Source of the DNA: Escherichia phage SP27
Reading direction: 5' to 3' (one strand)
Sequence record: LC494302.1
Length of the DNA: 64,000 bases
Under the pieces are notes generated by a model, which saw only the letters and a program-made list of their open reading frames with translations, made no database searches and was not told where the DNA came from. The position numbers and the translations under genes are program-made. Positions 4,549-63,737 of the stretch are shown here, piece after piece; positions within the stretch are counted from its first letter, which is position 1; every line of letters begins with the position of its first letter.

Positions 4549-5185
4549 TTAAACACATAGAGACAGGGGAAGCTCCTAGTGAACAACCTTTATGTACAGG
4601 CGAATTGTTAAAATTCAGCCTGGACAAATGCGATCACTAGGATTCTCCCCAGGCTAAACCCCGTAATCATAGGTAGTCATAAGTAATCATATATAAACAT
4701 TTATATGAGCACCGTAGAATCACAGAATGATTATATATGATTCAGTACTGATTAGTATAGACAAGAATGCTCAAGAATGCACGGGAAGGATTCAGAATGA
4801 TTCAGTACTGATATGCCACTAAGTAGGCAGAGGAAGTCTGCCGTACTTTGTAGTTTCCAAGCTCCTTTTCCATTTTGCAAATTACATCAAATGTAATCAA
4901 AAGTAATCACGCAATGATTAGTACTGAATTATTACTTTCACCTTAATTTCAATTACCCCTTTACCCTTCGGGGTAAAATTCAATTACCCCTTGAGGCTCC
5001 AGCAAAAAGTTGGTTAGTACTCCATCCTAAATCTGGATCGTAAAAAATTTGGAGTACCTATGAAATAAAAGTTGGATCTTCGAAAGTTGAAATTTACGTT
5101 GGGACATATAGGATTTGTGGGATATAATGAGTTTTGTAGCGATACAGATTATACGATTTCAGTACTGAATAATGAAAGAAAGCTA

Positions 5186-5213
5186 TTGACATTATGATTC
5201 AGTACTGTATAAT
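5186..5213 (+). promoter_or_regulatory. orphan sigma70-like promoter with no downstream ORF
   Basis: TTGACA 5186-5191, 16 bp spacer containing AGTACTG, TATAAT 5208-5213. Confidence 0.5.
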
Positions 5214-5549
5214 GTTCTACATAGGGTGATGAGTTGCTGCGAACAATTCATTTACTCTACCTCCTGTCGTGAGACAGTACAGAAAAGATAGTTCCTCCTG
5301 TGGTGGTACATCTTTTTGAACCTCATATGAAAATCGTAATAACAGTACTGATATTAACAGAATGGTGTCAGTACTGATTTTAATCTAAAGCATTATGCCA
5401 CCAGCACAAGTTGGTGGATTCCCTCTAACAGTATTCAGTACTACATGATAGTCTTCATCCTCCTAGGGTAACATAGTGAGGGCTATGATGGCAGTACTGA
5501 ATACTCCCTTTCAAAAGATAGATCTATGGTATAGTACTGACGGATTTTG

Positions 5550-5745
5550 GGTGTAGTTACCCTGGATGGATTTTGGACGTAGATATGTCTAGCCCTCCAG
5601 AAGTCTGGAAGTAAAGATGGCTATCCATCTAGACGGCTAAACGGATAGATTTCTGGATGGCTGGATGGCTAGACGTTTGGACGGCTAAACGGCTAGATGG
5701 TTACACGTCTGGAAGTATAGACGGCTAAATCAAAATTTTATTTTG
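5550..5745. repeat. cluster of short direct repeats (iteron-like)
   Basis: GACGGCTAAA x3, TCTGGAAGTA x2, several GGATGG/CCATCC and CTAGACG motifs within about 200 bp, locally GC-richer. Confidence 0.5.
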
Positions 5746-5950
5746 TTTTTTCCAATAGTTCCCCTACCGCGTGGGGATAGTTTCCCCGCAGTATCTGGAG
5801 TTAGATTTTTCTGAATCTGGAATCATTATCTTATAAACTGGGGGCAATGTCAACGGCCTGGACGGATATTTTTAAAAATTTTTTCAGTACTGAATTTTGG
5901 GCGTAACTATGCACCCGGTGGGCTTGAGTCTTTCTCGACTTGATGGAACT

Positions 5951-14526: not shown

Positions 14527-14586
14527 TTGCAATTAGTTTTTAGTACTGTATAATGTTTTACATAGAGGGGGGAAATGGTTCTCCCC
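14527..14586 (+). promoter_or_regulatory. class I early promoter plus 5' stem-loop cassette
   Basis: TTGCAA 14527-14532, TATAAT 14549-14554; hairpin GGGGGGAAatggTTCTCCCC. Confidence 0.65.
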
Positions 14587-14604
14587 AATAACAGGAGAAA
14601 CAAA

Positions 14605-14757
14605 ATGAAACAATACAACGCTCGGTTTGATGTTACTATCGGCAACGGTAAAGGTCAATTCTCTTTCAGTACTCGACGCAGTTATACAGAAAACTTCCTG
14701 CGTAATTGTGCACTGACCGCCGCACAAATTAAACATTACTTTCAGGCTAAAAAATGA
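14605..14757 (+). CDS. hypothetical small protein (50 aa)
   Basis: start at ATG 14605 (MKQYNARFDV) after AGGAGA RBS. Confidence 0.45.
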   Translation: MKQYNARFDVTIGNGKGQFSFSTRRSYTENFLRNCALTAAQIKHYFQAKK

Positions 14758-14987: not shown

Positions 14988-15009
14988 TGGTTGACTTCGG
15001 TCAGCCATT
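14988..15009 (+). terminator. intrinsic terminator (first part of repeated intergenic module)
   Basis: GGTTGAC-TTCG-GTCAGCC hairpin with tetraloop, then TTTTGC. Confidence 0.5.
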
Positions 15010-18598: not shown

Positions 18599-18691
18599 AT
18601 GCAAATGAATCCGATGATTATTGTTTTAGCTGTACTTATGATCATTCATGCAATTGTAGAAGTATTAACGCAATCAGGAGTAATAAAATGA
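18599..18691 (+). CDS. possible small membrane peptide (30 aa)
   Basis: read by hand: MQMNPMIIVLAVLMIIHAIVEVLTQSGVIK; AAGGAG RBS 8 nt upstream. Confidence 0.4.
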   Translation: MQMNPMIIVLAVLMIIHAIVEVLTQSGVIK

Positions 18692-18861
18692 TTCAAGTAG
18701 AATTATCAGTACTGAAAGATCTGTTTTATCGGTTAGGTACTACTGGAGAGTATCCTAAAAGTGATACCGCAAAACTTTTTGTATCACTCGATTTATGGCA
18801 ACGCGAACAATTAGTAATGTCCTGGCGTAAAGGTAAAGCAGATAGCGAGGTGAAAGCATGA
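18688..18861 (+). CDS. hypothetical small protein (57 aa)
   Basis: ATGA overlap with previous; read by hand. Confidence 0.4.
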   Translation: MIQVELSVLKDLFYRLGTTGEYPKSDTAKLFVSLDLWQREQLVMSWRKGKADSEVKA

Positions 18862-19007
18862 AAGAATTCTTATTCGAAGTAGTGTTTCAAGGTGTCGGTA
18901 GTAATCAATTGATTCGCTCAAGTGGTTACAATGTTAACCAGGCATGGAATAACATTAAACAAATGTACCCGAACGCTATCACATATCGCAACCCAAAAGA
19001 AGTTTAA
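18858..19007 (+). CDS. hypothetical small protein (49 aa)
   Basis: ATGA overlap with previous; read by hand. Confidence 0.4.
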   Translation: MKEFLFEVVFQGVGSNQLIRSSGYNVNQAWNNIKQMYPNAITYRNPKEV

Positions 19008-19021
19008 AAATAATTGAAAAA

Positions 19022-19043
19022 GGGATTGACTCCGGTCAGTCCC
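19022..19043 (+). terminator. intrinsic terminator (first part of repeated intergenic module)
   Basis: GGGATTGAC-TCCG-GTCAGTCCC hairpin preceded by A-run, followed by TTTGC. Confidence 0.55.
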
Positions 19044-19145
19044 TTTGCTATTATATACGCATAGAAACAAATCAGCCCACCGGGTGCATAAATGTATCTA
19101 TTGTTTGCTGGTGGCTAGTACTGAAAACTATTTTTAAAAAAGTAC

Positions 19146-19173
19146 TTGCATTGTACTTAGAATCAAGTATAAT
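19146..19173 (+). promoter_or_regulatory. class I early promoter
   Basis: AAAAAGTACTTGCATtgtacttagaatcaaGTATAATGTTTTACATC. Confidence 0.65.
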
Positions 19174-25598: not shown

Positions 25599-25626
25599 TG
25601 CGTAAAGGGATCTAGTACTGATTCAG

Positions 25627-25692
25627 AAAAAAGTCAAGGCGTTTTTAAAATTATGCGTTAAAAAAATGCATAGGTAATCCCTTGACTTTTTT
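25627..25692. terminator. long imperfect hairpin, possible bidirectional terminator
   Basis: AAAAAAGTCAAGG ... CCTTGACTTTTTT arms enclosing about 40 nt, at the boundary before family B array. Confidence 0.45.
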
Positions 25693-25789
25693 GAAATAAA
25701 AGGGATTGGACTATGGCAAAATGCGTAGGGGGCTAAAGGGCGGGTAACCTTAGCGACTTCGATAAAGGGGTATTACGAATAAAATGTTA

Positions 25790-25818
25790 TTGATTTTTTA
25801 TACGAATCGTATATTATA
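25790..25818 (+). promoter_or_regulatory. putative promoter for family B array
   Basis: TTGATT then about 17 bp then TATATTAT; GGAG RBS before ATG 25848. Confidence 0.4.
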
Positions 25819-25847
25819 GGATTGATATTATTTTTAATGGAGTCCCT

Positions 25848-38749: not shown

Positions 38750-39090
38750 GTATATTTTCGGTTTATATAGTAAACGTCAGTAAAGATGGTAGTTTAATTG
38801 AATTTGATGTAGTTGATAACAATGATAATTCATATGGTATTAAGGTACAGGACAATGATGTACAGTTCAGTACAAGGACAAATTTTGAGAATCCAGTCCA
38901 AGTTCCGAATTTCATAGAAGATGAAGCTGCACGATTCCAATACGAAACGGCATATGACAATGTACATATGCATATTATTATGCAAACGAGTTTAGTTCAA
39001 TTAGTTCCTTTGTTCAGACAAAATATATATGTACATGAAGTGTCGATTAATGGCATTCAAAGTTCCGTTTTGTTCGGTACAAATATGTAA
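38746..39090 (+). CDS. hypothetical protein, paralog family C
   Basis: motif EAARFQYETAYD. Confidence 0.5.
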   Translation: MSIFSVYIVNVSKDGSLIEFDVVDNNDNSYGIKVQDNDVQFSTRTNFENPVQVPNFIEDEAARFQYETAYDNVHMHIIMQTSLVQLVPLFRQNIYVHEVSINGIQSSVLFGTNM

Positions 39091-39100
39091 GGAAAGTACA

Positions 39101-39652
39101 ATGAGTTCAATGAGTTTATTAGATACATTAGAAAAAGACAGAAGTGCAATTAAGCGTTTAAAAGAGCAAGTACAAAAGATTGTATACAACGTTGATAAGT
39201 TTGAAGTCCCAGGAAGATTTGGTGATATTTCCCATACGGAGATCAAATCCCTTAAGTCAGATTTGTTGATTAAAAATAAAAATGGGTTGATTTTAGTTTT
39301 GAGTTCAGATATGATGGGGGCAACACATAGTTATAATGCAGTATCGGTGCGTTCAGAGTGTGAAGGTATATATCTATCACAGGGTTTCAATAGCGAGACA
39401 CAGGTTTGTTTTTGTGATGCAGTACATGACCCTATGAAGTTCACGAGAAGTGAAGCCCAAGCGTTATTAGAGCTATCAGACGAGAGTTTGTTTCAGTACA
39501 GTACAATGTATGACAATGATAAGCTTCGTTGTATGTACGCTGTAAAGCATTATACACATGAGTTCTCTGGATTTGCATACCTTTTAGTTAGAACCAATAC
39601 CAGATATATTGATATGTTAGAAGATTACATCGATAAAGTTGTTAATGTATGA
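39101..39652 (+). CDS. hypothetical protein, paralog family C
   Basis: start at ATG 39101 (MSSMSLLD) after AAGGAAAG; motif DESLFQYSTMYD. Confidence 0.55.
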   Translation: MSSMSLLDTLEKDRSAIKRLKEQVQKIVYNVDKFEVPGRFGDISHTEIKSLKSDLLIKNKNGLILVLSSDMMGATHSYNAVSVRSECEGIYLSQGFNSETQVCFCDAVHDPMKFTRSEAQALLELSDESLFQYSTMYDNDKLRCMYAVKHYTHEFSGFAYLLVRTNTRYIDMLEDYIDKVVNV

Positions 39653-39834
39653 TGTATGATTATGTGATGGGATAATGCTGATGAAAGAGTTATTTGAAGA
39701 TCAGTTCAATGCATATGTGGATAATATTCTTTATTCCAGTCGTGCCAGTCAACGAGGAAATCGTGCTTACAACATAGATTACCTATTAACGGTGCTGAGT
39801 TCACAGTACACCTACGCTGTACAGAGGACATATT

Positions 39835-40038
39835 ATGAATAATTTTAGAGATGTTGCTAAGGAGAAGTTCAAGTGCAGTTTAGATTACGGTTTAAATGAT
39901 TTTCTTACATGCACAATGTACAGGAATGATGATTATGAGCAATCCGTAATTTCGTTGCACAGATATTTCGAAATAATTTACGCAAGATATCTTAGAAGGT
40001 TAGATGGGATAGGGGATTGGAATTATGATTACGTTTGA
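39835..40038 (+). CDS. hypothetical small protein
   Basis: AGAGGA RBS; 67 aa. Confidence 0.45.
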   Translation: MNNFRDVAKEKFKCSLDYGLNDFLTCTMYRNDDYEQSVISLHRYFEIIYARYLRRLDGIGDWNYDYV

Positions 40039-40234
40039 AGAGCCGGAAGTGTTAAGTTCGCATAGTATTAAGGGTTTTGAATACATGATGGATTTGATTT
40101 TGAAGGATACATATTTGGTTCAGAGTGTAGATAATACGGTACACCGAGTATTGAATTTATACGAGATGACGAGTCGAAGGCTTTGTGCTATGAAAAGGAT
40201 TGAAGAAATCAAGCTTTCTAGGCTGAATAAATAG
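40025..40234 (+). CDS. hypothetical small protein
   Basis: 69 aa; overlaps previous. Confidence 0.4.
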   Translation: MITFEEPEVLSSHSIKGFEYMMDLILKDTYLVQSVDNTVHRVLNLYEMTSRRLCAMKRIEEIKLSRLNK

Positions 40235-40433
40235 AGACGTTTCATTTTTACAGGCCGCTGGGGGGGGTCAAAAAAATTTCCGCTGAAAAACATGCTAAGG
40301 TATATGTTTAATATAAAGTTTTATATTGTGTTTTTCAGAGTACAGTTCATGTTTCCTGAAACAAAAAATACCCCGCCCCCGCAACGTGCTCCTTATATTG
40401 GAGTTTACCTTATTAATTATAGTAGAGATTAAG

Positions 40434-40811
40434 ATGGAAATAAAATATAATGAATTTTGTGCAAGGACATGGATGTACACTGGTGAGTTAGTTACGCACT
40501 CTAACTTATACAAGGGTGATTTAAACTACGCTAGGGACAAGATTTTAAAGTACTGGAATGCTGACTTTTATTTGATGGATTTTAGTACTGGGTTTCATGG
40601 GATATCTATCGAGATGCCGGACTATACAGTACTTGATGATGCTGCACTGTTCCAGGAGGCATTAGTATTTGATAAGAAGTACATCTGTACATTAGAAGAG
40701 ATGATTGAATTACAGCGTAGAATTAAATGTATTCACAGGGAATGTATAGATATCTGGTGCAGTACTGGTGAGGCCGATTTCTGGAAATTTTTTAATCTAG
40801 GAGAAGAGTGA
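40434..40811 (+). CDS. hypothetical protein, paralog family C
   Basis: start at ATG 40434 (MEIKYNEF); motif DAALFQEALVFDKKY. Confidence 0.55.
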   Translation: MEIKYNEFCARTWMYTGELVTHSNLYKGDLNYARDKILKYWNADFYLMDFSTGFHGISIEMPDYTVLDDAALFQEALVFDKKYICTLEEMIELQRRIKCIHRECIDIWCSTGEADFWKFFNLGEE

Positions 40812-41167
40812 TGGAATTTGATTTTTTAATATCAGTACATACTTTCAAGCACAGTTATCAGTACTTTTGTAATTTAAACAAAGGTGATTTAATGCACAGT
40901 GCGAATGAGTATATTCATTACACTCAGGGTAAATTTACATTCATTGATTACAGTTCATTACAGTATCCACACCAAGATATGCCGGACTATACATTAATGG
41001 ATACCGCAGAACTATTCCAAGAATCATTAGTATTTGATAAGAAGTACTTGTGTACATTTGAAGAAGTTATTGCAATACAAAATGAAATGAAAGAGTATGC
41101 TGCTTTGCATAAACCCAATTCAAGTATTAATCAAGAATACAAATTCAATTTAGGAATTCAAGAATGA
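40808..41167 (+). CDS. hypothetical protein, paralog family C
   Basis: motif TAELFQESLVFDKKY. Confidence 0.6.
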   Translation: MMEFDFLISVHTFKHSYQYFCNLNKGDLMHSANEYIHYTQGKFTFIDYSSLQYPHQDMPDYTLMDTAELFQESLVFDKKYLCTFEEVIAIQNEMKEYAALHKPNSSINQEYKFNLGIQE

Positions 41168-41523
41168 CATATGATTATTCTATGTACTATTATAAGTTAC
41201 CTAAAGGATGGGACTTGTGCTGTAATCTTATTAAGGGCGACTCGGAACATGAGTTGAGTTTATATATGCATTACAAAGATTCTTGTTTTAAATTTATTCA
41301 TGTATCACATGACGACTATGACTATGAATCTGAGAGTCTTATAGATTATACAGTACTGGACGATGGCGAACTATTTCAGGCTGCATTAGTGTTTGATAAG
41401 AATAAGTACTCCTGTACATTTGAAGAAATGGTTTCTTTGCAAAATGAAATGAAGAGATTTGAAAAAGAAAACGTATTTAATCCATCCCCATCAAGAACGA
41501 ATAATTATTATTTCAATATATGA
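41164..41523 (+). CDS. hypothetical protein, paralog family C
   Basis: motif DGELFQAALVFDKNKY. Confidence 0.6.
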   Translation: MTYDYSMYYYKLPKGWDLCCNLIKGDSEHELSLYMHYKDSCFKFIHVSHDDYDYESESLIDYTVLDDGELFQAALVFDKNKYSCTFEEMVSLQNEMKRFEKENVFNPSPSRTNNYYFNI

Positions 41524-41532
41524 GATTATAAA

Positions 41533-42024
41533 ATGACATTACAGAGTTCATTGGAAAAAGCAAAGAAGATTCATGAGTACATGAATATGGCAAAAGAAGG
41601 TTCAGTTTACGGTGTTTTCAAAGACACAAGTACTCAATATTATGTACCGGATAACCTCCTTTATAATGACTGCTCAGATACAGAAACGTGCGTACTGGAT
41701 ACAGAAACGTGTGTACTGGATACCGACCCTAATGATTATGAATGCTACATTAATATGCATAATGAGTACATGGTCTATATTAATGATACAGATACCATCA
41801 ACAGTACTGACAGCGATTCCAATGACATTATAATTCCGAGTGAAGTACTGGAAGGTCCGTGGGATAGTGAAGAGTATTACTTCCAACAAAGTACTGTATA
41901 TGATAATGAAGTACTTGATGTTATTATAATTATGTGGTACTTTAAAAGTATTGGTTCTGGGAACTTCTATTTCGATTACAAATACGTAAAGAAAACTGTA
42001 GATAACGGTATTAACAGGGGTTGA
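41533..42024 (+). CDS. hypothetical protein, paralog family C (EEYYFQ subgroup)
   Basis: VLEGPWDSEEYYFQQSTVYDNEVLDVIIIMWYFKSIGSGNFYFDYKYV. Confidence 0.65.
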   Translation: MTLQSSLEKAKKIHEYMNMAKEGSVYGVFKDTSTQYYVPDNLLYNDCSDTETCVLDTETCVLDTDPNDYECYINMHNEYMVYINDTDTINSTDSDSNDIIIPSEVLEGPWDSEEYYFQQSTVYDNEVLDVIIIMWYFKSIGSGNFYFDYKYVKKTVDNGINRG

Positions 42025-42025
42025 A

Positions 42026-42496
42026 ATGAGTTTAGAAAGAGCATTAGAGATTGCGAAGTTAATTGATTTATGCAGCAAAGAAATTGTAGCAAATTGTCTT
42101 AATGGATATCTATTCAAGGAAGGTAAATCTTATTGTCGAATGAGATACGATGACAGTAGTGAGTACATTCACATGTATGAAGAAAACTTAGATTCTTCTG
42201 AAACAACACTCAATGGGTGTGATGTTAATTTGGAAGATAATTACATGTACTTCTGTCGTGATGCTGATATTTTAATACAAGATTCTGACATTATATCTGG
42301 TGCAGCAGAGAAACATCTTCCGTATTCAGTACTGGATAATGACTGGGGAAGTGAAGAGTTCTACTTCCAGCAGAATACTATCTACGAGGAATATGTGCTT
42401 GACAAGCTTGTCATTCTGTGGTACTTTAATAATACCGATTGTCCTAGCTTCTATCTGGACTTGGATCTACTACGAGTTATTAAAGAGGATATATGA
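42026..42496 (+). CDS. hypothetical protein, paralog family C (EEYYFQ subgroup)
   Basis: VLDNDWGSEEFYFQQNTIYEEYVLDKLVILWYF. Confidence 0.65.
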   Translation: MSLERALEIAKLIDLCSKEIVANCLNGYLFKEGKSYCRMRYDDSSEYIHMYEENLDSSETTLNGCDVNLEDNYMYFCRDADILIQDSDIISGAAEKHLPYSVLDNDWGSEEFYFQQNTIYEEYVLDKLVILWYFNNTDCPSFYLDLDLLRVIKEDI

Positions 42497-42936
42497 GTTT
42501 AGCAAGTGCACTTAAACTGGCACACAAAATACATCACTTCCACGATAACATAAAAAGTGGTTTCTATGGTGATAAAGTAAGTGCATTTGGTAATGAGTAT
42601 TATCTATCAGGTATAAAGACATACTCTGATGATATTTTACTTATGGGCCATGATAAAGACAATACTATACAGTACTCTTCATGTAGTCAATATACTAGTT
42701 TTTTTGTATATATTCCAGGTACTAAGATTACGTTTGACACATCAAATACACCTGTTGACTTCGGGGTACTTGATGGCCCGTGGGGTACTGAAGAGTATTA
42801 CTTCCAACAGAGTCTTATTTTTAACCAAGAAATGCTTGATTCCTTGGTTGTTTTGTGGTACTTTAAGGAATTGAAGTTTGAACCATTTTTTCTTGACTGG
42901 GGAGCATGTGAATATTTAAGTACAGGGGATTTGTAA
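42493..42936 (+). CDS. hypothetical protein, paralog family C (EEYYFQ subgroup)
   Basis: VLDGPWGTEEYYFQQSLIFNQEMLDSLVVLWYF. Confidence 0.65.
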   Translation: MSLASALKLAHKIHHFHDNIKSGFYGDKVSAFGNEYYLSGIKTYSDDILLMGHDKDNTIQYSSCSQYTSFFVYIPGTKITFDTSNTPVDFGVLDGPWGTEEYYFQQSLIFNQEMLDSLVVLWYFKELKFEPFFLDWGACEYLSTGDL

Positions 42937-43427
42937 TGTCGTTACAAAGTGCATTGAAAGAAGCAAAGAAGATTCATGAGTACATGATTATGGTACAGGA
43001 AGGTTCAGTACCTGGGGTGTATAAAACATCTGATACTGAATTTTTTGTAAAAGACCGTGACGATTATGACGAGTCCGAGATATGTGCAGAAACATTAGTA
43101 CTGCACACTGATACTGGTGACAGTGATAACTGTGAATATCATATGTACAATCAGTACATTAGTTATTGCCGTAATGAAGATATTACCATCTACAACACAG
43201 ATAGTGATGCTGATGACACTATCATTCCTTATTCAGTACTGGAAGGACCGTGGGATAGTGAAGAATATTACTTCCAGAATAGTACGTTGTACAATGAAGA
43301 AGAACTGGATGTTATTGTGATTATGTGGTACTTTAAAAGTATTGGTTCTGATAGTTTCTATTTCGATTATGAATACGTAGAGAATACTGTAGGGGAAGAT
43401 AATGTCATTACAAAGTGCACTGGATAA
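42936..43427 (+). CDS. hypothetical protein, paralog family C (EEYYFQ subgroup)
   Basis: VLEGPWDSEEYYFQNSTLYNEEELDVIVIMWYFKSIGSDSFYFDYEYV. Confidence 0.65.
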   Translation: MSLQSALKEAKKIHEYMIMVQEGSVPGVYKTSDTEFFVKDRDDYDESEICAETLVLHTDTGDSDNCEYHMYNQYISYCRNEDITIYNTDSDADDTIIPYSVLEGPWDSEEYYFQNSTLYNEEELDVIVIMWYFKSIGSDSFYFDYEYVENTVGEDNVITKCTG

Positions 43428-43845
43428 AGCAAAAGAACTACAGGTATATATTGAAGATATCAAGGCTGGGAAGTTCGAAGAAGTATACAAAGCCGAGAAT
43501 GGTAACTACTACAAGGATAGTGATTTTACCACAACTACAGTTATTCTTGGGCTGAATTCCAAAAGTCCCGCAGATTTTTCACAATACAATCCAGATGCAG
43601 AATTTATCAGTTATGCTTATGGTGGTGAAATCCGTTTTTATAATCGCAGCAGACCTTTAAAATTGAACTTTGAAGTACTGAAAGGTCCGTGGGATAGTGA
43701 AGAGTATTACTTTCAGAATAGTACTTTGTATGATGATGAAGTACTAGATACTTTAGTTATTATGTGGTACTTTAAAAGTATTGATAGTACAAGATTTTAT
43801 TTGGATTATGAATATGTACGTGAAGCATATAAGGGCAAACGATGA
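43402..43845 (+). CDS. hypothetical protein, paralog family C (EEYYFQ subgroup)
   Basis: VLKGPWDSEEYYFQNSTLYDDEVLDTLVIMWYFKSIDSTRFYLDYEYV. Confidence 0.65.
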   Translation: MSLQSALDKAKELQVYIEDIKAGKFEEVYKAENGNYYKDSDFTTTTVILGLNSKSPADFSQYNPDAEFISYAYGGEIRFYNRSRPLKLNFEVLKGPWDSEEYYFQNSTLYDDEVLDTLVIMWYFKSIDSTRFYLDYEYVREAYKGKR

Positions 43846-44156
43846 AATTCTTATACAGTATTCAGTACATTCCTGGTACAATTAGTTTAATGTATTTCTT
43901 CGATCATGATAATTTCCAGCACCTTGCCGTTAGAAGATGTAATGAATCTTTAATGATTGAATATCTTCACGATTGTGATTATATTCCTGACTTCCTTGAA
44001 TGTGATTACAGAGATGATCATGAAACATTTCTTTTTCAGGAATCACTTGTATGGGATAAGAGAATTAATTTTTATGCTTTACTTGAGATACAAAAACAAG
44101 TGAAGTACTACTGGGATTACTTAATTACCCAAGAATATATAGAGATTGAAATATAA
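43842..44156 (+). CDS. hypothetical protein, paralog family C
   Basis: motif HETFLFQESLVWD. Confidence 0.55.
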   Translation: MKFLYSIQYIPGTISLMYFFDHDNFQHLAVRRCNESLMIEYLHDCDYIPDFLECDYRDDHETFLFQESLVWDKRINFYALLEIQKQVKYYWDYLITQEYIEIEI

Positions 44157-44629
44157 TGTACGAAAGTGATCTTAAGCACGCTGAGGAATTAGTTAATATA
44201 GTAAAGTTCTTTCAAAATAATGTAAAGTACTTAGACGACAAAGGGGCATATATTAGTACTATAAGTGTTGGTACAGATATTCTAGGATTAGGTAATGAAT
44301 ATAAGTACGAGTCCCATGATTATGATTTGGAATTCAAGTACTTCGAATGGAATCCTGGAACTTTCTATTCAATCGATGAAAGTGGGAAATATTTTGAATT
44401 CACCGAAGAAGACGTACTATTCTTAAATTCAGAAGATGCTTACTTCCAGTACAGTACTATATACCCAAATAGTGCATTAAGAGCTTTAGTAGTTTTTAAT
44501 GCATTTCTGAAAGAGAACTTTAATAATTCTATATTCATTGATTTAAATTATGTATATGAACTAAATCAGGTGATATATATGGAGTCCAGAAAAAATGAGT
44601 TACGAAAGTGCAATCAAGAAAGCAAATGA
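44156..44629 (+). CDS. hypothetical protein, paralog family C
   Basis: motif EDAYFQYSTIYP. Confidence 0.55.
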   Translation: MYESDLKHAEELVNIVKFFQNNVKYLDDKGAYISTISVGTDILGLGNEYKYESHDYDLEFKYFEWNPGTFYSIDESGKYFEFTEEDVLFLNSEDAYFQYSTIYPNSALRALVVFNAFLKENFNNSIFIDLNYVYELNQVIYMESRKNELRKCNQESK

Positions 44630-52196: not shown

Positions 52197-52225
52197 TTTA
52201 CAGTAGCATTCAGATGTGTTATAAT
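52197..52225 (+). promoter_or_regulatory. possible promoter
   Basis: weak -35 TTTACA/TTACAG, -10 TATAAT 52220-52225. Confidence 0.3.
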
Positions 52226-62210: not shown

Positions 62211-63059
62211 ATGAAACTTTATCTAATCGTTGACTACAGTAAGGGTTATTATGACTACGCAGAAGAATCTGAAGGGTATTGCTCGTCTACTAATGTCAAT
62301 GTACGCACCAGTAGTACACATGAGCATGAATCTATTACAAACCTAAAAGATTTCATCGCATATCGAGCATTTGAAAAGAATTTCTGTCGTAGTAGATATT
62401 CGAAGTTTGAGTACCCGTTAATTGATGTTCCTGATGAATTGATGTTCCAGTTAATGCTCACTGGAGTACAAGATTATGATTACATCGCGTACAATCACAT
62501 TACTAAGAAAATTTATATCGGTACGTCAACACATGACATTTCTATGTATGCATCATGCCCCGATGATCGAATGAATGATAGAAAATCATACTATAGTGGT
62601 TCAGTTGGTTCAAATGATTCATTAAATGAAAATTTATTCTTTGAGTACGAGTTTGATAATCATCGAGGGAAAAAAGACCGAGAAGATTATTGTACTGAAA
62701 TTGATAGTACCAATGGATATGAAGAAGTGAAAGAAGCGATAATGCCATATATCCTTGACAAGTACTACAAAGATTTTCAGTACTGTAGTAATTTTCTAAT
62801 CCGAAATTCTATCATAATCGGTCGTCAAAGTACTGCATTCTCTAAGTACTACAATGATTCCCCTGTTGCTGAAAATGAAAACTGTAATATTCTCTCAATC
62901 CCACGTGAAGATATGGTATTCATGTTCACATCTTTCATTGAAGATGATGAGTTGTATGTAAAAAACAAGCACAGGTTCATGCCAAGTAAGATTGAGGTTA
63001 TGAGAAGCTTAAGTGCAGATATCTTAACTAATTTCACTGAAAAAACAGAATACAACTGA
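62211..63059 (+). CDS. hypothetical protein with family C-like motif
   Basis: 282 aa; contains DELMFQLMLTGV. Confidence 0.55.
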   Translation: MKLYLIVDYSKGYYDYAEESEGYCSSTNVNVRTSSTHEHESITNLKDFIAYRAFEKNFCRSRYSKFEYPLIDVPDELMFQLMLTGVQDYDYIAYNHITKKIYIGTSTHDISMYASCPDDRMNDRKSYYSGSVGSNDSLNENLFFEYEFDNHRGKKDREDYCTEIDSTNGYEEVKEAIMPYILDKYYKDFQYCSNFLIRNSIIIGRQSTAFSKYYNDSPVAENENCNILSIPREDMVFMFTSFIEDDELYVKNKHRFMPSKIEVMRSLSADILTNFTEKTEYN

Positions 63060-63088
63060 GACATACCATAAGTTTATGATATAATGTA

Positions 63089-63122
63089 AGGTGACAGCAG
63101 AATATGTTGTCGCCTTTTTTTT
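63089..63122 (+). terminator. intrinsic terminator
   Basis: GGTGACAGcagaatatgTTGTCGCC followed by T8. Confidence 0.6.
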
Positions 63123-63737
63123 AATCCTGAAAGGTTCCATATGGAAATGATTAAAGCCTAATCCACTCGAAAAGTAGAGGGTAGATGAGTAGTCCTTTCA
63201 GTACGAACAGCAAATGAAACCCGTTAGATGATGGCATAGTTTGAACCACTCACGGCAATGCGGCTGTATAAAGAACTCCAATAGGATAAAGAGAGTTCCT
63301 CGATAGACATATAAGGATCGCACCTTACCAATTATCTAAGGGAGATTTCATGAGAAATTTGCGGTCGGAATTATACAATATAGTTGCGTCCAAATTTTGT
63401 GAAATCAAATACAAGTACTGGTCATATGGTATTTGTATTATGTGTCGGGATGTTTAAGACCGACGACCGTTGCTACAAGAACCGCGATAGAGAGAAACAG
63501 AGCAACCCGCTTTCGTCTCGTAAGAGAATTCGTGATATGAACTATGTGAAGGCCACCAGCGTCAAACTTTTTTGTTCTTTCCCCTGCGGGGGGATGAAAT
63601 ATGCTCAAGCAAACCCCGTCAATATTAATTAAAAGAAAATAGTACTTGTAGAATTAGACATGCGTAGCATGGTAATTCTACTGATGTTGATGAAATCAAC
63701 GTCACGTATATTCATTGATGTTTCCATAGGAATAATG

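Follow-up and report, generated by a model that had tools for sequence, protein, structure and literature searches.

The interval between the genes at 40025..40234 and 40434..40811 of Escherichia phage SP27 (LC494302.1; the window analysed here is the whole stretch of 64,000 nucleotides, to which all coordinates refer unless another genome is named) is, as judged by sequence comparison, a real, non-coding and moderately conserved regulatory spacer. It is probably the unusually long (~200-nt) leader of the only late-promoter motif in the window. This motif, ATAAATA, which is absent from the initial annotation of this DNA, is more informative than any other feature of the locus. The account that we favour, tentatively and with somewhat less than even confidence, is that of a non-coding regulatory cassette placed before the first ‘family C’ ORFan gene, made up of a late leader with a slipping G-run. 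In this account, RNA polymerase carrying a gp55-like late sigma factor would start near 40240, such that a leader of ~194 nt would carry both GC tracts of the interval, as against the 17–65 nt that separate motif and start codon in ordinary late genes. The two tracts could then pair over ~10 bp as a GC clamp that encloses an AT-rich domain, the clamp being a stretched version of the 21 G-run/C-run hairpins of the phage's own early region and of the polyG/polyC stem-loops of T4-type phages (PeSL, see below), and changes in the length of the G-run through replication slippage would change the strength of the clamp. Any effect of G-run length is probably modest, since three relatives do without all or part of the element. 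If the account is true, a late promoter lies inside a long run of ‘early’-looking arrays of ORFan paralogs, and the family C array can be given a temporal class, as can the arrays that follow. The components of the locus are all of known kinds, and current understanding is not overturned.

From sequence matches of positions 39000–42000, the window belongs to Asteriusvirus, jumbo E. coli myoviruses of the 121Q/PBECO4 group. The match to Escherichia phage BAU.Micro_ELP-22 is at 99.3%, and 34 further records match; all of the matching records are Escherichia or Salmonella phages, and those fetched are classified as Asteriusvirus or else left unclassified below Viruses or Caudoviricetes. Nearly all genes of the window lie on the + strand. 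Beyond ~25.8 kb they are small ORFans packed tightly into arrays, in which stops overlap starts. Among these, a gap of 199 nt (40235–40433) separates the two genes named above, for which PHROGs returned families of unknown function only and Pfam no match. The GC content around the gap is ~33–35%, and the GC-richer early block of the window ends at ~25.6 kb. The idea that the gap lies near a terminal-repeat boundary was considered because the record of phage Sharanji begins near the element, and it was rejected: records with defined ends place the element 35–38 kb from the end and well beyond the GC-richer early block.

Three further observations concern other parts of the window. Firstly, 1.4 kb at 4549–5942 contain no ORF of at least 50 amino acids, and at ~5 kb the GC skew changes sign and the GC content rises; this stretch may be the start of the early or terminal-repeat block. 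Secondly, the boundary gap ahead of the first packed array (25599–25847) contains a long inverted repeat, AAAAAAGTCAAGG..CCTTGACTTTTTT, along with G-rich runs (TAGGGGGCTAAAGGGCGGG). Thirdly, different ORFan paralog families in the arrays at 31.6–59 kb (for example 41533–44629) share, near the C-terminal half, the motif (E)EYYFQQSxVYD / LFQEALVFDKKY / FLFQESLVWDK, which suggests, from the translated sequences, one very large and fast-diverging superfamily.

The late-promoter motif ahead of the interval

ATAAATA is found at 40227..40233 on the + strand, where it overlaps the stop codon of the gene at 40025..40234 and is followed 26 nt downstream by the G-run. By sequence match it is a probable T4-type (gp55-like sigma) late-promoter core. 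The same heptamer has been predicted as the late promoter of the Rak2-like phages CBB and GAP32, analogous to TATAAATA of T4 (PMC5259590). As the copy in the window is preceded by A, it matches seven of the eight bases of the T4 octamer, and from its position we would place a transcription start near 40240.

The motif occurs only once on both strands of the window taken together, as compared with 48.7 ± 6.9 occurrences expected from dinucleotide shuffles, and the shorter TAAATA occurs 19 times as compared with 139.7 ± 12.4. Its behaviour within the genus was checked on 50 kb of the structural region of phage phAPEC6, in which 16 of the 20 copies of ATAAATA lie on the coding strand, 17–65 nt before an annotated start (46 nt for the major head protein, 18 for the prohead protease, 59 for the baseplate wedge and 31 for endoVII), and a seventeenth precedes an unannotated Shine–Dalgarno sequence and ATG. 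The fetched region also encodes gp237c, which is, by annotation only, a ‘Sigma factor for late transcription’. In other words, the core motif itself, its use upstream of genes together with its avoidance elsewhere, and an annotated late-sigma gene in the genus are all to be found. What departs from this pattern is the spacing, as the motif ends 200 nt ahead of the ATG at 40434, at least three times the usual 17–65 nt, and the bases that follow the motif, GAGACG, are less A/T-rich than those at typical late promoters.

Two observations made alongside these stand in their own right. Across the whole window, ATAAATA is depleted on the non-coding strand as well as on the coding strand, which points to selection against false late starts in both orientations; Asteriusviruses, it would appear, remove the late-promoter core from their early region, on one strand as on the other. 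In the phAPEC6 region, positions 18609–19162 (numbered within the 50 kb) have no annotated gene and contain an ATAAATA at 19160 on the − strand, followed 31 nt on by aaggga and an ATG; this stretch is probably an unannotated late gene.

Further evidence on the motif comes from comparison with related genomes. In 20 of 21 genomes the motif overlaps codons (AAT AAA TAG), and evidence that is independent of coding therefore comes from phage A4 only. Over a 12-kb locus of A4, the sole ATAAATA is in non-coding DNA, 13 nt ahead of the G-runs, where it is followed by TAGGCT, and it may be homologous by descent to that of the window. The motif is missing from ph0011 (which has AATAATTAG), UE-S1 and SD1_S14, three phages in which the element's left part is absent too. 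In EJP2, which retains the conserved block described below, there is no ATAAATA, and TGTTATAAT stands upstream instead.

Predicted pairing and conservation of the two GC tracts

The initial annotation drew attention to a G8 tract and to a C-rich tract some 100 bp downstream of it, both said to be atypical of such AT-rich DNA, and this description is accurate. The G8 (40260–40267) lies within GGCCGCTGGGGGGGGTC, and the C-rich tract ACCCCGCCCCCGC lies at 40370–40382, 102 nt (40268–40369) beyond it. The G8 is the single run of G or C of at least 7 in the window (two overlapping G7 matches and no others), a finding which is unremarkable alone, given that 0.78 G7 matches are expected and that two or more occur in 22% of shuffles. 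CCCCGCCCCCGC is also the longest all-G/C run of the 64-kb window, in which there are four such runs of at least 9 nt, the three others sitting in the GC-richer part at 10–13 kb. What is not a chance pattern, therefore, is the presence of a complementary pair of GC-only tracts within ~120 nt of DNA with a GC content of ~33–35%.

Read along the + strand beyond the −35-like hexamer described below, the interval has the left GC arm GCTGGGGGGGGT (40257..40268), which contains the hypervariable G8. This arm runs into the most conserved block, GGGGTCAAAAAAATTTCCGCT (40264..40284), which is fixed in length, is kept even in the divergent EJP2 and is a candidate protein site or leader element; a site for IHF in this block was rejected by eye, its spacing being off by one base. 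An inner inverted repeat follows at 40283..40338, formed by CTGAAAAACA (40283–40292) and TGTTTTTCAG (40329–40338), with an AT-rich core that includes AAGGTATATG. An A6 run (40363..40368), which is 5 to 9 long in relatives, adjoins the right GC arm ACCCCGCCCCCGC (40370..40382), a (CCG)n-like polymorphic tract. The proximal leader (40383..40433), kept in all 23 aligned genomes, has a small hairpin, GCTCC (40388–40392)/GGAGT (40400–40404), and a weak Shine–Dalgarno sequence, GAGA (40425–40428), ahead of the ATG at 40434. As a separate matter, four phages (slurp01, WPEC3, EcMJ and WPEC5) have a 12-nt insertion (AC[A/G]ATTGAAATGA) between the Shine–Dalgarno region and the family C ATG, which creates a second in-frame ATG. 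No intrinsic terminator is predicted in the gap, and neither arm has a T-run after it. No known RNA gene turned up in the interval, either with ARAGORN or with Rfam at the gathering score, and the Rfam matches at E values up to 10 were at chance level only.

It had further been proposed that the two tracts could pair over a long range to give a structured RNA. The pairing is indeed predicted: the minimum free energy (MFE) fold of 40236–40433 holds the helix GC.GGGGGGGGU / ACCCC.CCCC.GC, the arms pair in the MFE fold of either strand, and the arm duplex has a ΔG of −20.1 kcal/mol in the window and of −11 to −22 kcal/mol across genomes. In the ensembles of 17 of 21 genomes, 6–11 arm pairs are expected, the clamp being weak in 121Q, CRJP21, EcMJ and slurp01. 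The marks of a conserved structured non-coding RNA, namely covariation, thermodynamic excess and Rfam membership, were not found. The fold is no stabler than those of shuffled sequences (z = −1.19 for the + strand and −1.63 for the − strand), the RNAalifold consensus is missing the arm helix and has 0 compensatory changes among its 40 pairs, and for the named helix both the covariation score and the percentage paired (88.8%) equal those of the shuffle control. The clamp between G-run and C-tract is, as a selected RNA structure, plausible but unproven.

These results bear directly on a first alternative, in which the interval is above all a selected structured RNA (a leader domain, an RNase III-type processing site or a small RNA) defined by the helix of the two tracts. 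Beyond the predicted pairing itself, it has in its favour that no GC-only tracts other than the arms are found in a context of 33% GC, that the G6 and C6 arms of A4 match one another despite a non-homologous left flank, that G-run/C-run hairpins follow 21 early promoters of the phage, and that, if the late-promoter reading is right, both arms are on one transcript. EJP2 may be counted here as well. Its second GC tract, (GGC)n, is rich in G on the strand that also carries the G-run, with which it therefore cannot pair, but a different clamp of 7–9 bp, CCGCTCCGC/GCGGGGCGG, could be built around the common AAGGTATA core. Against such an RNA, in addition to the comparisons with shuffled sequences and the lack of compensatory pairs, the lengths of G-run and C-tract do not track one another, the right half of the inner repeat is mutated to TTCACAG without compensation in five genomes, such that the inner hairpin is broken, and UE-S1 and ph0011 can dispense with the element. 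On balance, we regard this alternative as unlikely.

The element is conserved in an uneven manner. Between A4 and the window, positions 40262–40431 have 94.8% nucleotide identity, and this is the sole nucleotide match within 37.4–40.6 kb. The neighbourhood in A4 is otherwise syntenic, with three small genes missing; upstream, A4_349 has 29% amino acid identity to the product of 39029–39652 and, downstream, A4_350 has 41–54% to the family C proteins. The homology begins at the conserved block and continues past the right arm up to the ATG, the left flank being non-homologous. EJP2 recognisably keeps GGGGTCAAAAAATTTTCCGCT and AAGGTATAAT only, ph0011 retains just the last 51 nt before the ATG, SD1_S14 is without the left two-thirds of the element, and in UE-S1 a gap of 45 nt shows no trace of it. 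The break points of these losses fall at the G-run, at the junction of A-run and C tract, and directly after the C tract. As far as the alignments allow, the element is a conserved yet dispensable cassette at rearrangement junctions. A search of the window with nhmmer and a profile of the element found no second copy, and in 31 of 32 records the element is found at one place per genome. Being single-copy and having no target-site duplications, and with the conservation in A4 running past the right arm, it was rejected as a mobile (MITE-like) element. Searches for distant homologues returned 121Q itself only (scans of IMG/VR), chance matches only (a metagenome scan with an unspecific AT-rich 17-mer) and eight chance matches in unrelated bacteria (a genome scan with a 20-mer).

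Such dispensability raises a second alternative, which we judge to be as improbable as the first, that the interval is a remnant without function (a pseudogene or a cassette in decay) whose GC tracts drift by slippage and are complementary only as a by-product of composition. The absence of the element from UE-S1 and its reduction in ph0011 and SD1_S14 would fit with decay, as would the hypervariable tracts, the lack of covariation and the single copy. Decay does not sit well with the identity to A4, which is retained even though the flanking genes have diverged beyond nucleotide recognition, nor with the divergence of the interior, which at ~6% (estimated by eye from the alignment) is less than the 11% of the coding flanks. 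Moreover, the A7 run is fixed while the shorter A6 run varies, and ATAAATA is kept in a region that otherwise purges this motif ~49-fold.

Promoter-like hexamers, tract length and the 46-residue reading frame

A third alternative, a little less probable again, is that the interval contains a phase-variable promoter of sigma-70 type, with a −35 element of the form TT(G/T/C)ACA, a −10 element AAAAAT and the G-run in the spacer between them, such that slippage would switch the family C array on (G5–G7) or off. In the window the −35-like hexamer is TTTACA (40247..40252, + strand), which is TTGACA in eight relatives and TTCACA in another eight, and its distance from AAAAAT (40272–40277) is the tract length plus 11. 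The perfect TTGACA of eight genomes argues for a promoter, as does the invariant length of the A7T3 block in which the putative −10 element lies. Moreover, A4 and EJP2 have TTGGGG and CTGAGA, respectively, 17 nt before AAAAAT in left flanks that are not homologous, and other intergenic gaps nearby carry promoters of this kind, for example TTTACA-17-TATAAT at 52197. Against these points, promoter-like sites are no more frequent than chance (16 as compared with 15.1 in shuffles), the spacer is 19 nt in the window and 15 to 21 nt across genomes, and the key G of the −35 element is a three-state polymorphism. AAAAAT is also without the first T of the −10 hexamer, unlike the strong early promoters of this phage, and a mirror-image promoter-like site is present on the minus strand, as such matches arise easily in quasi-palindromic AT-rich DNA.

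The ‘promoter 1’ class of CBB (TGAAACR-N13-TGnTATAAT) was likewise rejected, the TGAAAC-like repeats of the element being without a usable −10 and the motif not being enriched in the window. Elsewhere in the window, at 63057–63425, TGAGACA-N13-TGATATAAT does fit this class; it is directly followed by a hairpin, GGTGACAGC..GTTGTCGCC, with T8 and then by ~300 nt without an ORF, and it could give a very short transcript or be an attenuator.

The G8 had also been described as a classic site of slipped-strand mispairing, and between isolates this suggestion is supported. The interval was aligned from 23 genomes, and counts of tracts and frames are given over 21 Asteriusvirus genomes. Across these the G-run is 4 to 10 long, and in EcMJ and TH47 it is interrupted by A (GGAGGGGGGG) with a length of 10–11. 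Even where the 670 flanking nucleotides differ by no more than 0.3%, the run is G8 in the window, G6 in UB, G5 in ELP-22 and G6 in JP4. The C-rich arm has at least seven variants, including CCCCGCCGCCG, CCCCGCCACCG, CCCCGCCGCG and CCCCGCCCC, and its length is uncorrelated with that of the G-run across genomes. The base before the G-run (A or T) and the third base of the upstream TT(G/T/C)ACA are polymorphic too, in a manner that is incongruent with the clustering of the flanks. The A7 run that touches the G-run, by contrast, is unchanged in 18 of 20 relatives, and the two exceptions, CMSTMSU and TH47, are flagged as UNVERIFIED. Changes in length are thus concentrated in the two GC tracts and one A-run, and with A7 fixed there is therefore no general homopolymer artefact. 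On these comparisons the G-run is a simple-sequence tract whose hypervariability is genuine.

Several sequencing platforms are prone to error in homopolymer G runs, and it is conceivable, albeit improbable in our view, that the differences in G-run length are artefacts of sequencing or assembly. In keeping with this, the shortest tract (G4, CMSTMSU) is from a record labelled UNVERIFIED_ORG, and one of the longest (GGAG8) is from TH47. Errors in length calling would not explain the interrupted variants of EcMJ and TH47 or the A/T substitutions at the border of the run, and the range of lengths, 4–10, is wide; the constancy of the adjacent A7 again stands against this alternative. In practical terms, the G-run offers a marker that evolves fast and is a pitfall for assembly quality, and the natural series from G4 to G10 is a ready allelic series for effects on the leader or promoter. 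A bolder extension of the account that we favour is that the G-run is a contingency locus in a virulent jumbo phage, in which replication slippage would continually give rise to sub-populations that differ in tract length and, by way of clamp strength in the leader or of promoter spacing, in their late expression of the ORFan array, a form of bet-hedging over accessory genes. We give this extension little weight.

Finally, the interval could in principle encode a small hydrophobic protein of 46 amino acids from the sole ORF inside the gap (40292..40432, + strand), which is annotated as a hypothetical protein in ELP-22, JP4, SD-2_S15 and 121Q, is intact in ~8 genomes, has its frame preserved in PBECO4 and SD-2_S15 by the joint changes of +1 in the A-run and −1 in the C-tract, and has a stop codon directly against the next ATG, as do other genes of the packed arrays; this reading is very improbable and was rejected by analysis of the frame, which about half of the 21 relatives carry only in truncated or frameshifted form (a TAA after codon 10 leaves 10 amino acids in 10 genomes, and there are independent stops or frameshifts in 121Q, G17, CRJP21 and A4) and which has neither a Shine–Dalgarno sequence before its ATG nor a Pfam match. 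The interval is thus non-coding, as had been claimed, and the GenBank entries for a 46-residue ‘hypothetical protein’ are probably spurious.

Comparison with the phage's early cassettes and with known systems

Arrangements of a G-run and a C-run that could pair within one leader are found elsewhere in the same phage. Between 6493 and 24900 (for example at 14549–14606) the window has at least 21 early cassettes of one layout, in which TATAAT is followed by 10–16 nt (gttttacat...), a hairpin GGGG(A)GAA..TTCTCCCC with a ΔG of −4 to −13.5 kcal/mol, ~20 nt with a Shine–Dalgarno sequence, and the ATG. Variants of the arms preserve the pairing (GGGGAGAA/TTCTCCCC, GGGGAAAC/GTTTCCCC and GGGGGAG/CTCCCCC). 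The GC-richer block at 6.5–25 kb, in which dozens of strong sigma-70 promoters are found, also has two features of its own. A repeated AAAAAGGGATTGACTCCGGTCAGTCCCTTTGCTATTAT (at 19026, 22018 and 24274, with a variant at 14991) sets a −35 element, TTGACT, inside a GGGA..TCCC hairpin, and would by analogy correspond to the subclass of PeSL in which the stem-loop lies over the −35 box. In addition, AGTACTG (often cAGTACTG) is found directly 5′ of the −10 element in a large share of the early promoters between 5186 and 24415, and AGTAC recurs in other intergenic DNA; AGTACTG may be a binding or modification site.

The early cassettes are PeSL-like, PeSL (promoter-early stem-loop) being regulatory cassettes of T4-type phages (Arbiol et al. 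2010, PMC2839356; Comeau et al. 2014, PMC4122927). In the literature searched, no earlier description of such a family in Asteriusvirus was found. Asteriusviruses use PeSL-like cassettes of a promoter and a G/C hairpin, which have so far been described for T4-type phages.

In comparison with the late promoters of T4, CBB and GAP32 (PMC5259590), the locus has the exact ATAAATA on the coding strand with a gene downstream, in DNA where the motif is otherwise avoided. It differs from other late promoters in the 200 nt to the start codon, in its G-rich downstream context and in its location in a region of ORFan, early-type genes rather than structural genes.

Phase-variable promoters with a homopolymer in the spacer between the −35 and −10 elements are known from porA and opc of Neisseria and from fim of Bordetella. 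The interval is similar in having a variable poly-G flanked on one side by a hexamer resembling TTGACA and on the other by an A-rich hexamer resembling a −10 element. It is dissimilar in that its hexamers are at chance level, its carrier is a virulent phage, and the variation is seen between isolates.

As regards leaders, 5′-proximal stem-loops stabilise mRNA, as in the ompA leader, and in the leaders of T4 genes e, soc and 49 transcript-specific hairpins control the access of ribosomes. In common with these, the interval has GC-rich pairing near the 5′ end of the predicted leader, and a read-through transcript and a late-promoter transcript are predicted to coexist. Masking of the ribosome binding site in the read-through transcript only, of the kind seen for T4 gene e, was rejected: the predicted accessibility of the Shine–Dalgarno sequence and AUG is similar for the late transcript starting at 40240 (0.42) and for read-through (0.53–0.55). 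The helix, unlike those of the ompA and T4 leaders, is long-range and without covariation.

Like PeSL, the interval lies between ORFan genes and extends from the stop codon of the upstream gene to a Shine–Dalgarno sequence and ATG; it has a polyG tract and then a polyC-type tract able to pair with it; and it sits at the junction of otherwise diverged gene modules, as seen from A4 and from the end points at the arms in SD1_S14 and ph0011. Unlike PeSL, it has no consensus sigma-70 promoter (the best match, TTTACA-19-AAAAAT, being at chance level) and has the late-type ATAAATA instead; its arms, which pair in silico, are 102 nt apart, whereas the early cassettes have compact stem-loops; and it is single-copy, not a dispersed repeat. 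Because it has no consensus sigma-70 promoter and no further copies, and its arms lie far apart for a compact stem, the interval is not filed as PeSL, and it is the 21 early modules that are the phage's true PeSL-like cassettes. By analogy with these, the interval looks like a stretched, single-copy relative of the early-cassette design, driven by a late promoter.
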